A DNA stretch of 60,057 nt, filler included, from Hausera hauseri (lineage: Eukaryota): NCBI GenBank assembly GCA_046269625.1. It is 11 parts of 11 records of this genome, joined end to end, with 100 filler letters (N's around TTAATTAATTAA, not from the genome) between each part and the next. Parts side by side here need not be neighbours in the genome. Positions count along the whole stretch, not along the records: positions 40,611 to 48,963 come from JBJURY010675439.1; positions 49,064 to 54,569 come from JBJURY010239739.1; positions 54,670 to 60,057 come from JBJURY010264398.1; 8 more parts are not named here. One strand, 5' to 3'. A model generated the notes under the pieces. It saw only the letters and a program-made list of their open reading frames with translations, made no database searches and was not told the DNA's origin. The translations under genes and the position numbers were made by a program. Shown here in pieces: positions 40,611 through 60,057 of this stretch; position 1 is the stretch's first letter, and every line of letters starts with the position of its first letter.

Positions 40611-41363
40611 CGGGTATAAATATAGGTGTTAGAAGGTTGACAGTAATAAGAAAAAGTCGACAATAGTGTAAATATTCTTAGTCTAGATTATTGATTTTGT
40701 ATGTAAATAATTATAATTGATCGGGTTAATTGGTATTTGCAGAATAGATAGAAATATAACATGTGGAATATTGAAATTAACAATAACATATGGTTAATGA
40801 ACGAAATGCTGAAAAACAGAAAATTAATTGAGAAAATGCACCTGTGTTGAATAACTAACGACTATATATACTGAACCCCAAAGTGAGAGAATGTCTAGTT
40901 AGTTCTTCGACTGTAGCGTCCATTTGCAGGAAAATTACTTCGACCTTAGAGTTGATTTGTGTTCAAACAAAGGATTCCAGCAGTGCGATAATTCGACATC
41001 AGTGATACACGAAATAGTTGCTATAGACATTTGAATCGTTGTGATCCTTATTGTGGTGTTCATTATATTGGTATATTTATTTATTTTCTTTCAATTTCCA
41101 CTATAGTTTTTTTCATCGGCCCTTAAGGCTGATTGGGGTATCATTAAGTCTTAAAATTTATGATAATTTATATAGGCTACGAGAATCATTAATTTGTGCA
41201 CAGGATTTTGCACGCATTACACTTGCATAAACGAAATATCGTCATTCTGGGCACATTCGTTTAACAAGAACGTTAAACCGAATTTGCATATAGACAACAA
41301 AATTCAAGAGTAAATAACGTGATAAATAAGGGGAGAAGTTAAGGGCCACCCTAATATATACCA
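40611..41363 (+). mobile_element. Probable 5' LTR (partial) of env-bearing Gypsy element, copy 1
   Basis: Non-coding, TATATATA at ~40863, ends in CA just before the PBS. The second LTR is not available for comparison. Confidence 0.5.
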
Positions 41364-41365
41364 TT

Positions 41366-41383
41366 TGGCGACCCTAGCAGGAC
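41366..41383 (+). promoter_or_regulatory. Primer-binding site (probably tRNA-Arg)
   Basis: CA-TT-TGGCGACCCTAGCAGGAC about 320 nt upstream of the gag ATG. The tRNA identity is inferred from similar Gypsy PBSs. Confidence 0.65.
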
Positions 41384-41687
41384 ATTCTGTGCCTAGCTAG
41401 ATATTATTTCGAGTTAATTAACGACACATTGGCGATCAGCGCCAAAACACCAATTAATTGTGAGAAAATGTAAAATTTTGTGGGAAATAAGTTATCAGAC
41501 TTAAAATTTAAAGGGATAATTCAAGACGAACATTGATTACCAAGTAAACGGTAAGGATAAATCACCTATACGTGAGACACGCAGAGTTATATACAGAACA
41601 AATTCTGAAACTAGAATTAACATAAAACCAAACGGTAGCTTTAAACTTCCTCGACTTAAAGATAAATCTTATAAGAATAAGATAGAT

Positions 41688-55246: not shown

Positions 55247-57070
55247 TGGTTAATCAGTTTACTTACCATAATGATGTTGATAAAACATATTGGCGCTGTC
55301 ACCGTTTACGACTGCGATAGATTTAAGCTTGGACAAAAATACTCACTAGTGAATTTAGAAACATGTGAAGATGCCAGACCACACAAATTAGAAACAAAAA
55401 AGAAGAGTTACTTCCCATACCAACAACAAGAATTAATAGCTTTGGATGATATGGAATGTAGGATGAGATGGTCTCGTAGCATTTTCCACTGTGGACTAAT
55501 GCATGGACACTCCTCTATAATGAAACCAACGACCCCTCCAATTCCAATGAACTTAGAAAGGCAACACTGCAATCAGGCCAGAGAAACCGGAAAACTGAAA
55601 TGGGATAGTATGGAACTGGAAATTCAGCCCGGAAAGATAATCAGAGCATATAATATAGTAGTTGGTAGGTTAGATATGCATAACGGGCACTGTAGTGGAG
55701 CGGAATACGACACCGGAAAAGGATTAGAGGCAAACGTGGTAGTAGTAGACTTTTACGAATCAGAAATGCGAGTACAGAAGGTAATGTTTCATAGCGTCAT
55801 AAAACTATATACCGAAAATCAAAAATGTCATATACAGGATGGAACCTGTGCTTTTAGAAGTTCTATCGTCATATGGGAACCGCCCGCTGGAAAAGACCGT
55901 GATTTTATTAAGATTAAGGAATTGAAATTTAATGAAACTACCGAAAAACGATATGTAAACAAATTCGACATCAGTTTAAGAGCACGGGAAGACGTATCAG
56001 AGCATCATACACCTACGATACTAATCTCTGATCAACCTGGATTGAAATTCATAATAAAGGAAATGATTTTGCGTTGTGAAGTAGTAATGTTCACCACTAA
56101 TTACGAAGCGTTCTTCGTCGCAGAAACAAAGATAAACGCAAAAACATACAGATTGGAAACGCAAGACATTAGAATCGAAGATTATTTGAAAAATCGAGAC
56201 GATTATTCTTACTACAAAGGACAAGTCGGAATAGCCGAACTATGTCACAAAATGACAATTAATGACTGAAAATTAGACACGGAAATTATGAGGACAAAAT
56301 TAGCTCTTATCTACGCAAACCCTGAGTTAGCATCACCAATTATTCCCATGAGAAAAGGAATTTTTGGCCCAGTTACTGACGAAGTTCTACTAACATATGA
56401 ATGTGAGAAACAAATGTACTAATCAACGTCGAAGAAAAACGATATATACAGGAGCTGCCTGTAATTTACCAGAACACTCCGCGATTAGCCACACCTCTTA
56501 CTAGAGTACTATTAGACAATACAACACAACCTACAATCTTAAAGGATTGTAAAGCAAGTATTGGCAAACCAATGTTTAGGCGTAGCGAAACGGATTGGGT
56601 TAGCTTACCTAATGGAGGTGTCACTATCATTCCAAAAAAACTAACCGGAACTAATTTAGCAAAGGGAATTACTGATGACAAATTCCAGGACACATCTCAA
56701 AAGGGTATTTATATACCGAAAGAAATTGAAGCTTTTCGACAATTCCTCGCTTTTCCACGACAGCGAACACACGAATTAAACCGAGCTATAGCATTAGTAG
56801 TGGACGATACCCGACATCAAACTAAATGAGAATCTTTACTCGGAGCAAACCATTATCAATGAGTAACCACAGAAATACTCTACAAAATATGGGGAAGATT
56901 TTTAATTTTCGGACAAGCCGCATCTGGATTTTTACCAATCTATTTCTTGGTACAATTAGTAAAAGCGGTAATCCAAGCATTTATAAACGTATATGAAATA
57001 TTTACGGTAACAGAATTTTCTTGCAAAATTTTAACCGCAATTATCACCCTGTTTGGCAAAATGCTTAAAG
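55247..57070 (+). pseudogene. Envelope glycoprotein, chuvirus-G / gB-like (copy 2)
   Basis: 354-aa open stretch 55205-56269 with signal-like segment, VTVYDCD and the Cys pattern seen in copy 1; hydrophobic C-terminus at ~56880-57060. Confidence 0.82.
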
Positions 57071-57729
57071 CATAGGAAGATAATCGATGGAAAAATGACG
57101 TTGAACACCACGTCGGCTAACATAATTATAAACGACGAGCAAGACCCACATTTCTAATAAAACGCAAAACTAAGAGATCAACAACACAAAGAAATGACTC
57201 CAATTATGAGGAGCCTAAGGGAGGAGAAGCGATCCTCAGACAAAATAGACACAAAATGTATTTAGTAATCAAGGCACCCTTGCCTATCATGCCGACAACA
57301 GCTCCAATATATGAAGATTGTGATAGGACATCCATGGTTTCATACAAATCGGAGATCTGTTAGAAACCCTTTCGCTATGATGACCCGTATGAAGGAACAA
57401 AACAATATGGAGTAATAAAGAAAATGCAAATCACTAGTCAACGACAAGTGGACGATGACCATGGGGTAATATATTCACCGAGAATAGATCGTAACATAGA
57501 GACAAGATCGACAGTCTGGGGGACACAAGGAATGAAGTCGTTCCAAAACCCAATAACAAAAGAACCATTAATTAGAAATAACGCAGCAATTAACGACTTA
57601 TACCCTAACGAAGAACTAAAACAGTTGACTGAGAATATCGTTTCATCACCAGAAATAACAATAAACGGACATAAGATTTCATTAATTAAACGACCAAAAG
57701 ACATGTCAAATTGCTATGGAACCGTTATG

Positions 57730-59840
57730 GAAGGGTGACCCTTCACGAAAATTACTATTGAAGATTGGAAAGTTTATGCCTTAATCGACACCGAATCAGA
57801 GAAATCATTTATCAAGTTAGAATCAATACCACCGACGTTACGAAAACAACTACAGCCAGCATCGTCATCAGACCCTAGCAGCATAGGAGCTTTCGGACAG
57901 GAATCCAAACCGAAATGTAAATGGAATACTCTAGTTGAATTAATGGGTCAAATTCTCTGTTATGAATTCGCCTTAATGGATCAATTAACCGACGATCTAG
58001 TATTAGGTTGCGATATACTGAAACAGTTAACCAACATCGCAATAAACTTACAGACTGGAAACCTTTTGGAACTTGAACCAGTGAAAGGTATTAAGACAGT
58101 GAAAGAAAGGAAACTAGGAGAAGTATGGATCCCCGTCGATGAAAATATTCCGCCCAGAAACGAGATGTTAATTTATGCTCAGATCCGCGAAGAAGACTAC
58201 CAACCAATATATTTTGAGCCAAACAAGATGTTAATCAAAATATTATACTTAGTAACATTTTGACGAGAGTAACAACAGGAAGAGTACCGATTAGATCAGT
58301 TAATAACTCACCAACGCCCGTAAAATTATATGCGAATACTAAGTTGAGTCACACTTACAAAGTGTCTGCAATAACAATAGAAGAAAAACCGTACAAATAT
58401 GCCGAATTTCCACCTCATGTTGAAACAAAATTTTCACCAGAAGCATATTGCCAAAGTTACGAATTATTATGTAAATATAAATCGATTATTGCCCAAAATG
58501 AGGAAGATATAGGCAGAGCAAAAACGCTAAGATTGAAGATTCCATTAAAAATGAAACCTGGCTCAAAGGACGGAATTGATTTTAAAGAGCAAAAGATGCC
58601 ACAATGGCACCCACCACCTCATTCTCTAAGTCCCAAAATAACCAAAGAAGTAGAACGCATGTTAAAAGCTGACATAATACGACCGAGCTACCGATCTTGG
58701 TACTCACCAATACACATGGTTAAGAAAAAGGGTATTACGAAACATTGAGATTGTATAGATTACCGAGCCTTAAAAACACTTATGATGAAAGACTCATTCC
58801 CACTACCATCAGTGAAAAAAGCTTTAGACAGATTATCAGGAGAAAAATAGTTTACCACATTGGATTTGCAATCAGGATACTGGCAAGTAGAAATTGAAGA
58901 AGAAGACCGTTACAAAACGGCATTCAAGACGCGCGATGGAGTTTATGAATTTAACCTCATGCCAATTGGCATAACAACCGGCCCAGCTATCTTCACCAGA
59001 ACCATGAAGAAAATTCTAATGGGACTTGATCATGCATTCTCATATTTATACGATGTAATGATAGCATCAAGAACAGTAAAAGAGCACCTAAAGGATATCG
59101 AAGACACTCTTATGCGATTAGAACAAGCCAAATTAAAACTGAACCCAAAGAAATGTAAATGGGCACAAAATAATATATCCTATCTTGGACACATAGTCGG
59201 AGAAGCAGGGTCATAACCAGATAAATCTCTATTAAACAAAATATCAGATTGCATAGAACCCCAGAATCAAAAAGAATTAATGCATTGGTTAGGTTTATGT
59301 GGATATTATGCCACGTATGTACCAGACATCTCGAAAATAAATGCTCCATTATATAGACTACTGAAAAAGGGAATCAAATGGAAGTGGACCGATGTTGAAC
59401 AAAAAGCGTTTGACGAAATGAAGAAAATTTGAACAAGCGAACCAGTGTTGAAATACCCCGATTTCAATTTACCATTCGTAATTAAAACAAACGCAAGTAA
59501 AAAAGGAATTGGTTACGAATTGGCGCAGAAACGAGAAGATGAAGAATTGAACAACCCGATTGCATACGGACGACGATTACTTAAGAAAGCCGAATAAAAT
59601 TATTCAGTTACTGAATTAGAAACATTGGCTGTAAAGGATTCATTAAGACATTTTAATGTCTATGTATACGGACAGAAAACTATTATAGCTACCGATGACA
59701 AATCTGTGACAACGCTAAAAGGACGGGCAAATAACCCAACATGTAGGCTAAATAGATAAATTGAGGAAATCTCGCGATACAATATTGAATTTCAATATAA
59801 ACCTTGAAGCAAACATATCGACTCAGATGTTTTATCGAGA
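57730..59840 (+). pseudogene. Pol: protease, RT and RNase H (copy 2)
   Basis: ALIDTES (D at 57787), LVLGCDIL, WYSPIHMVKKK, LDLQSGYWQV, MPIGITTGPAIF, YLYDV, TNASKKGIG, NYSVTELETLAV; stops and frameshifts. Confidence 0.92.
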
Positions 59841-60057
59841 CTTGAAACAAAAACAAGTACAATTACGTCCATGAAGAAGGCCCAATTTGAAAAATTAGTC
59901 AAACGACAACGCGCTTTAACAATAAATAAAACAATTAAAATCTCTTCAGAACAAGCTAAAGATAAAGTTATCCAGCAAATAATCAAATTCACCAAGCAAG
60001 ATGAAATGCCGAAAGGACGTCAATAAAAGGAACACTTACAGAGACACGGACATAAAT

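Follow-up and report, generated by a model that had tools for sequence, protein, structure and literature searches.

What is a fusion-protein gene doing between the gag and pol genes of a gypsy retroelement, and were all three once read as one protein? The question arises from two sequences in the window, a stretch of 60,057 nucleotides of Hausera hauseri DNA (assembly GCA_046269625.1) in which 11 separate pieces are joined through N spacers. Copy 1 (40611-48963) and copy 2 (54670-60057) come from two separate contigs, with N spacers between them, and are 82% identical across ~3 kb. We think it very probable that both are decayed copies of a Ty3/gypsy LTR element with a class III fusion gene of the gB/chuvirus type between gag and pol, likely translated at one time as a single Burro-like polyprotein. 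The features are as follows.

41366-41383, + strand: PBS-like motif beginning TGG, 2 bases past the CA that would close the 5' LTR
41688-42330, + strand: capsid region of copy 1 gag, interrupted by stops (gag of P0001, a relative, is 33% identical across 97 aa, E 5e-10)
42690-42740, + strand: one CCHC zinc knuckle, preceded by a stretch rich in Asn and Arg (Pfam zf-CCHC, E 5e-5)
42745-46500, + strand: copy 1 insert, with a coiled-coil-like middle and six frame switches
45580-45800, + strand: predicted ubiquitin-like domain, one stop near its start (five-relative profile)
46240-46420, + strand: candidate eroded Bcl-2-like module just ahead of the signal peptide, with frame switches (weak profile match)
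46500-48286, + strand: copy 1 envelope, comprising internal signal, class III ectodomain, anchor and tail (Pfam PF24664, E 6.5e-11 and 1.6e-42)
48288-48963, + strand: linker of copy 1, then the first part of its protease, up to the contig end (two-copy comparison)
54670-55230, + strand: copy 2 insert end, from the contig start, with one frame switch near 55033 (two-copy comparison)
55230-57120, + strand: copy 2 envelope, gB/chuvirus-like class III ectodomain and tail (Pfam, E 4e-21 and 2.8e-24)
57121-57735, + strand: copy 2 linker of ~200 codons from env tail to protease, in the same frame as env tail and protease (two-copy comparison)
57736-58030, + strand: aspartic protease of copy 2, with changes in the catalytic motif (Pfam RVP, E 0.0016)
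58578-59840, + strand: copy 2 RT and RNase H, Ty3 type, with stops and altered catalytic motifs (Pfam)

Domain order and the type of pol

The composite order is gag with its CCHC knuckle, an insert of ~1,250 codons, the class III fusion glycoprotein, protease, RT and RNase H. Since copy 1 stops within the protease and copy 2 begins within the insert, gag through RT is found on no single contig. Pfam confirms the domain order of the first-pass annotation, which had proposed a gypsy retroelement with env between gag and pol. No second LTR copy was found in the window, where 40611-41365 is not repeated and the contigs end before a 3' LTR, and no tRNA gene was found within it. The copy 1 capsid region gave no Pfam match of its own; a model of the C-terminal capsid region of P0001 has a fold like the capsid C-terminal domain of PEG10/MLV (Z 12.0).

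Pol runs protease, RT, RNase H in copy 2 by Pfam. The window ends ahead of any integrase, a domain that follows RNase H in relatives of the same RT group. The protease match lies just under the curated Pfam cut-off (E 0.0016), and tblastn to the P0071 protease gives E 5e-6. RT and RNase H are matched at ~58750-59780 with E 3e-28 to 6e-30, and comparison of the copy 2 RT with PDB entries gives 239 bits for Ty3, 163 for the caulimovirus type, 108 for foamy virus, 84 for MLV and 36 for HIV. On these scores the RT-RNase H is of the Ty3/gypsy (Metaviridae) type, and its named RT neighbours carry the annotation transposon 297 Pol. An env-bearing BEL/Pao element was rejected on position, env lying downstream of pol there and upstream of the protease here, in a comparison that held no BEL reference RT. 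The phylogeny suggested at first pass as a check places the copy 2 RT with the env-fused relatives: in a quick-search tree that included no named reference elements, and for which 15 short rows had been removed from the 70, copy 2, on a long end branch of 2.27, groups (SH-aLRT 96) with all 6 env-fused relatives and a cluster-mate of one of them, apart from the 47 other rows.

The glycoprotein

The Pfam family Monjiviricetes_fusion is found in both copies (best E 1.6e-42), each of which is damaged: the copy 1 envelope is marred by stops and frame switches and shows an in-frame gap when aligned with copy 2, and the copy 2 envelope, with its internal signal at ~55230-55295 and anchor at ~56900-57050, has a frame switch near 56407. 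The class III fold was modelled for the N-terminal 361 aa of copy 2 (55184-56269, mean pLDDT 85), the C-terminal half being assigned by Pfam alone. Foldseek matches the model to HSV gB (E 3.5e-7), and the VIA structure comparison with 2gum gives Z 10.3 and rmsd 6.0 over 242 aligned residues. Among predicted viral structures, glycoproteins of chu-like viruses come closest (E 9e-20, TM 0.64), the top matches sharing 13-17% identity. These gB and chuvirus matches bear out a viral fusogen fold, for which the first-pass annotation had suggested a Foldseek check. The protein resembles chuvirus-type glycoproteins as a class III fusogen of the same Pfam family and differs from them in being an internal domain of a likely retroelement polyprotein.

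Hydrophobic windows are placed alike in the two copies, one before the ectodomain and one cluster after it (in copy 1 at 46523 and 48062-48150), and none was seen in the gag and insert frames scanned. With an env piece as query, a word-based search of proteins 633-2,000 aa long yielded none out of 751 candidates, and a metagenome scan with the C-terminal env piece gave 45 pattern matches and no relative.

One reading frame or several

Judged by their sequences, both copies are dead, carrying stops, frameshifts and altered catalytic motifs. The damage exceeds what the first-pass annotation described: 23 stops and 9 frame switches fall within the 2,422 codons of copy 1, while the 1,794 codons of copy 2 contain 16 stops and 3 switches (near 55033, 56407 and 58245). 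Was the frame once open throughout? The first-pass annotation held that 56572-58263 lies in one frame, and a single frame in fact spans 56407-58263, with exactly the six stops it listed. Those stops (56827, 56860, 57073, 57118, 57361 and 57736), together with the one at 55181, occur in copy 2 only, all seven being non-stop codons in copy 1. The further claim that the insert runs in frame into the signal peptide holds for its last ~50-65 codons in copy 2 and fails farther upstream. As for a lesion just after the env tail in both copies, both are indeed damaged there, at different codons three apart.

Along the frame path from insert end to protease no stop is common to both copies, against 0-16 per segment in other frames. 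The third codon position is the most changed in 10 of 11 segments, the exception being a tie with the first position in a segment of 12 codons, and this coding constraint crosses both env junctions. Of the 71 database proteins in the comparison, 14 extend to the membrane anchor with scores of 90 bits or more. Twelve of these run in frame from env into protease (two of the 12 belonging to one 90% cluster), and the remaining two terminate 18-31 residues past the env match. A gag domain and env occur in one protein in 4 of 19 relatives scanned; one of these relatives extends from gag to integrase as a single stop-free protein, and in P0017 the knuckle, env, protease, RT and RNase H are joined to an integrase. 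The one-frame constraint and the relatives with open junctions make a single polyprotein, as originally proposed, the most likely arrangement.

Could the same element, in the same order, have been expressed in parts, a programmed frameshift or readthrough separating gag and insert from env-pol, or env from pol, and yielding less Pol? We regard this as unlikely, though it is the strongest of the alternatives. Retroelements do not usually make Gag and Pol in equal amounts, which counts in its favour, as does the break directly past the env tail in both copies; the lesions there, however, fall at different codons and neither stop is common to both, and the env-protease junction is open in the 12 relatives noted above. 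Five long relatives (P0002, P0003, P0008, P0010 and P0071) start just 110-190 residues upstream of env and, like the two that end past the tail, suit separate expression; such ends may mean that certain lineages have a further ORF of their own upstream, or may stem from the limits of gene calling or contigs. Four switches in the copy 1 insert (near 43915, 44830, 44990 and 45160) fall beyond the overlap with copy 2, and neither these nor the copy 2 switch between protease and RT can be compared with a second copy, so a programmed shift may lie at one of them. A slippery-type heptamer, however, lies within 60 nt of only one of the four copy 1 switches (0.4 expected per search window), and Burro, which is arranged in frame (PMC6431247), also speaks for the single polyprotein.

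A far less probable source of the glycoprotein is a chu-like virus gene that became endogenous, or a nested element, inside an ordinary gypsy. Chuvirus-type glycoprotein genes are common as endogenous viral elements, and the closest viral folds are indeed those of chuvirus glycoproteins. Against this, env has the same position and the same flanks in both copies, no repeat pair surrounds it in either, coding constraint extends over both junctions and the RT groups with env-fused relatives; together these largely refute a nested origin, and env appears to belong to the element, as the first reading had it. All 30 bins of copy 1 are moreover covered, by 18,630 contig pieces from one run, and family depth in that run climbs ~80-fold from bin 41169-41447 onward; among sequencing runs listed for the family one is of DNA type and none of RNA type, and since that DNA run may itself be the source of the window, its coverage is neither independent support nor a measure of copy number. 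An assembly chimera, the least probable explanation, might be suspected where contigs of 4-8 kb are strung together and the genome is rich in repeats, with none of one run's contigs spanning the whole stretch, but was rejected on the agreement over ~3 kb of two independently assembled contigs (82% identity) and on single proteins of the same order from unrelated datasets.

The insert, its relatives and a possible mechanism

Between knuckle and signal the insert measures 1,251 codons. Its middle in copy 1 has no assignable family, giving weak coiled-coil-type Pfam matches only, and Atlas searches with 44039-44842 and with part of relative P0018 gave no usable match. A ubiquitin-like domain is present upstream of env on profile evidence, at modest E-values and with hand-picked profile segments. 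A profile from five relatives matches the piece 45616-45858 (E 2e-5) among 1,837 six-frame pieces, at a score reached by none of 1,000 shuffles; a profile from the corresponding segments of the same relatives matches ISG15, UHRF1 and ubiquilins in the PDB (best E 0.005), and Pfam ubiquitin on the copy 1 insert gives E 0.066. The corresponding region of P0001 is modelled as a low-confidence helix (pLDDT ~30-55), and the absence of a ubiquitin-like row from the top 50 fold matches of P0001 counts as no evidence against the fold. For the candidate Bcl-2-like module, whose profile segments from five relatives were likewise chosen by eye, copy 1 scores 8.3 bits, reached by none of 1,000 shuffles; copy 2 has no such signal (289 of 1,000 shuffles reach its score). 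In the relatives this module matches BCL-xL (E 0.002) and is modelled with a Bcl-2 fold (Z 9.9). Pfam gives no family for the env-protease linker of copy 2.

Similar elements are known. Burro/GYPSM1, giant gypsy-like elements of dugesiid planarians, are described by Arkhipova and Yushenova 2019 (PMC6431247, citing Jurka 2007 and Grohme 2018) with a polyprotein in the order Gag, ubiquitin-like, BCL2, env, PR, RT, RH, IN. Compared by that description, our element shares the CCHC Gag, the ubiquitin/SUMO-like module, the mononegavirus-like fusion env, probably in frame with its neighbours, and PR, RT and RNase H, as well as the occurrence of many genomic copies, decayed ones included; a BCL2-like module is a candidate only. 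It differs in having one zinc knuckle as against two or three; apparently in size, with ~3,200 codons between gag and the point where the window stops (a composite of both copies, the 3' part missing and integrase beyond view) against an ORF1 of 4,873-5,140 aa and >30 kb; and in the BCL2 module, which lies directly before env in Burro and here is eroded, weak in copy 1 and absent from copy 2. The MATH, BIR, ankyrin and dUTPase-like domains described for Burro have no Pfam match here in the scanned pieces of decayed sequence.

Chary and Hayashi (PMC13524379) list GAG-ENV-POL Ty3/gypsy elements, 'ancient errantiviruses' with an ENV of the HSV/gB type, from Platyhelminthes (9 elements), Bryozoa (10) and Nematoda. 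Their gag-env-pol order, gypsy pol and gB-type env between signal and anchor are shared with our element; those elements are described there as intact, whereas both copies here are decayed. The gag-X-env-pol order, which the first-pass annotation took to be undescribed, is therefore already in print for Burro/GYPSM1 (PMC6431247) and catalogued for gypsy elements with a gB-type env (PMC13524379). The main text of PMC13524379 contains none of the words 'polyprotein', 'fused', 'Bcl' or 'ubiquitin', and so does not describe the insert; the portions consulted of PMC8532177 and PMC13238120 add nothing on element architecture.

We conclude that the element, decayed and smaller than Burro, is a new Burro-like case of a kind already known. 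The layout itself is not new, the gene order being published and the copies dead, and its value is that of one more data point. Certain nematode endogenous retroviruses reportedly carry one continuous gag-env-pro-pol ORF. In the non-canonical nematode elements of Sacco et al. 2022 (cited in PMC13524379) a metavirus env came to stand before pol by capture of an RNA-virus glycoprotein. A search for host genes with an eIF4G-like piece gave no hit among 2,123 candidates. A Burro layout in a host outside the flatworms, nematodes and bryozoans could point to a wide, unnamed clade of enveloped gypsy elements, with flavivirus-like signal-peptidase sorting of Gag, Env and Pol, a built-in anti-death protein and the metagenomic relatives as members, a wider reading that we consider doubtful.

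How might particles be assembled by a polyprotein that spans the membrane twice? Gag and insert would be synthesised in the cytosol, after which the internal hydrophobic segment, serving as a signal, would direct the env ectodomain into the ER. Cleavage by host signal peptidase after this signal would leave Gag-insert anchored in the membrane. Transfer would halt at the second hydrophobic segment, and everything from tail and linker through protease, RT and RNase H to integrase would remain cytosolic and tethered to Env. Pol, so placed, would enter budding particles by way of the Env tail, in a ratio of ~1:1:1 to Gag and Env, and the element's own protease would set it free. The ubiquitin-like and Bcl-2-like modules may be captured host domains acting on protein turnover and cell death.

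The ubiquitin-like/Bcl-2/env/pol polyprotein, known from the giant Burro, also exists in a more compact form, as well as in several datasets with RTs that group together. This ties the Burro description to the GAG-ENV-POL catalogue, whose main text omits these modules.

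Coding continuity across two decayed copies

The enveloped Ty3/gypsy element is present on two short contigs of the window, all of whose contigs are short and separated by N spacers:

40611-48963: copy 1
54670-60057: copy 2, cut off by the end of the window

Where they overlap (45950-48961 in copy 1, 54674-57797 in copy 2), the copies are identical in 2,469 of 2,999 alignment columns. Pfam matches give the order zinc knuckle, unknown insert, Monjiviricetes fusion glycoprotein, protease, RT and RNase H, and copy 1 has a PBS-like motif at 41366. No second LTR is found within the window, nor any integrase of this element, the window ending inside copy 2. 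The family is large and diverged: contig pieces from one public sequencing run, which may be where the window itself comes from, number 18,630 on copy 1 and leave none of its 30 bins uncovered; 8,125 of the pieces show <90% likeness. These counts give no copy number.

Both copies are decayed. The best frame path comprises 2,422 codons in copy 1, with 23 stops and nine frame switches, and 1,794 codons in copy 2, with 16 stops and three switches. In translation, the catalytic motif of the protease is non-canonical in both copies, and those of RT and RNase H are non-canonical also. The seven stops named in the first-pass annotation are all stops in copy 2, and none of the seven is a stop in copy 1.

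The two copies were compared over 11 segments that span the stretch between insert end and protease start. Along one frame path they have no stop in common, whereas alternative frames have up to 16 common stops per segment. Changes on that path are mostly at third positions in 10 of the 11 segments, with a tie in a segment of 12 codons. The absence of shared stops and the third-position excess imply that insert end, signal, ectodomain, tail, linker and protease have all been under coding constraint. The Pfam order and the shared coding frame path bear out the feature that the first-pass annotation had picked out. Either side of each indel may be the ancestral one in a comparison of two copies, and five frame switches fall outside the overlap; the main rival to a single long ORF is a programmed shift at a junction that has no second copy for comparison.

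Envelope glycoprotein and modules of the insert

A structure model of the stop-free piece 55184-56269 of copy 2, built from an alignment of 43 sequences, has a mean pLDDT of 85. In a Foldseek search of the PDB the model's top matches are to herpesvirus gB (E 3.5e-7); baculovirus GP64 and rabies G follow further down. VIA-align gives Z 10.3 against HSV gB (rmsd 6.0, 242 aligned residues), class III fusogens filling all of its top 11 rows, and among predicted viral structures the best matches are chu-like virus glycoproteins (E 9e-20). The ectodomain is bordered on either side by hydrophobic windows in both copies.

Two modules are each shared by five related proteins, and for both of them profiles were built from segments picked by eye. 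The module directly upstream of env matches BCL-xL over BH1-BH2 (E 0.002), with BCL-xL or Bcl-2 in all 60 listed rows. In a model of the relative P0001 this region has a Bcl-2 fold (Z 9.9, rmsd 3.2, 115 aligned), a Z more easily reached by chance for helical bundles, and 13 of 50 rows in the fold search are Bcl-2 family members. At the matching position the profile reaches 8.3 bits in copy 1, a score that none of 1,000 shuffles attains, and gives no signal in copy 2 (289 of 1,000 shuffles), so that the Bcl-2-like module in the window appears at best eroded. For the second module the profile points to ubiquitin-like domains (best E 0.005): of 23 rows, 18 are named as ISG15, UHRF1, DSK2/ubiquilin or a ubiquitin variant. 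Among 1,837 window pieces, a profile built on the corresponding segments of these five relatives has one strong match, 45616-45858 (E 2e-5); the fold model of P0001 left a ubiquitin-like domain unconfirmed. Pfam scans and, for 44039-44842, an Atlas search assigned no family to the remainder of the insert.

The most probable mode of action begins with translation of a single long ORF, whose internal signal would direct the ectodomain into the ER and be cut by signal peptidase. The anchor would halt transfer and leave Pol cytosolic on the Env tail. The element's own protease would then release Pol inside the particle. The signal would keep the Gag-insert portion at the membrane, and the ubiquitin-like and Bcl-2-like modules, presumably captured, would influence turnover and cell death in the host.

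Relatives and described elements

A full phmmer search gave 70 matches at E ≤0.001, 23 of them at 1e-10, with identities of ~20-35%. With one added cluster member, 71 proteins were compared. Fourteen reach the anchor with at least 90 bits against the C-terminal half of env; 12 of these run into a protease domain within the same protein, and two stop 18-31 residues after the env match. In 4 of 19 scanned relatives env is preceded by a gag domain within one protein, and the single protein P0017 (2,146 aa) spans the domains from zinc knuckle to integrase, env included. Several env-fused relatives (P0003, P0005, P0008 and P0071) have two to four protease-like domains in tandem. In P0006, the place upstream of env that the Bcl-2 module occupies in other relatives is taken, by eye, by a DEDD-type exonuclease-like domain, which has no Pfam match at E 0.01. 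P0007, an env-pol polyprotein, has as its NCBI source a Flavobacteriaceae metagenome-assembled genome, probably through animal DNA in the bin.

Judged by sequence, the RT is of Ty3 type. A quick ML tree of RT-RNase H (55 rows and no named references, 15 of 70 rows being too short and omitted) places copy 2, on a long branch, in a group of eight (SH-aLRT 96) with the six env-fused relatives plus one further member of a cluster to which one of them belongs. The other 47 rows, mostly picked on RT similarity alone, fall outside.

According to Arkhipova and Yushenova (2019, PMC6431247), ORF1 of the giant planarian elements Burro/GYPSM1 encodes Gag with CCHC knuckles, a Ubi/SUMO-like motif, BCL2, env, PR, a dUTPase-like domain, RT, RH and IN. 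The env matches mononegavirus fusion glycoproteins, and by those authors' account no earlier element had env in frame between gag and pol. Chary and Hayashi (PMC13524379), who cite Sacco 2022, describe a GAG-ENV-POL order, with gB-type env, for gypsy elements of Nematoda, Bryozoa and Platyhelminthes. Our element would work like Burro. It has, however, one knuckle, no MATH, BIR or ankyrin match in Pfam scans of the decayed sequence, and a shorter span up to the window end, and for these reasons we do not file it as Burro. The first-pass annotation was largely right on the biology, but the gag-X-env-pol order that it did not recognise as a described one is already in print in both papers. We conclude that the window element is a decayed newcomer to an enveloped gypsy layout already described, and that the layout itself is not new. 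The relative P0071 (4,844 aa, with an ankyrin match) is near in size and content to what is given for Burro ORF1.

Other features in the window

50151-54440, +: unrelated gypsy element without env, on the contig between the copies (Pfam, RT tree); gag-like piece, RT-RNase H ORF (51056-53029, +) and integrase (53347-53970, +)
8199-9157, +: RT remnant (tblastn matches), by eye like the env-less element
23373-24158, -: gag-like ORF, by eye like the env-less element
30179-33718, -: host eIF4G-like gene, MIF4G domain (Pfam E 6e-12), apparently short introns
24679-25923, -: CYLD-like host gene, CAP-Gly domain (E 9e-5), then ubiquitin-protease domain by eye
19563-22503, +: broken ORFs, by eye like a Polinton-type protein-primed DNA polymerase region
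49489-49878, +: weak USP9X/USP24 ARM-repeat match (E 3e-4), probably a host exon
33921-40510: purine-rich degenerate 4-base satellite, 6.5 kb
27570-28130: 5-base satellite

The env-less element is distant from the enveloped one in the RT tree. A search with the eIF4G-like piece gave no close relative among 2,123 candidates, and the Polinton-like reading had no supporting Pfam match. Both satellites give rise to spurious long ORFs.
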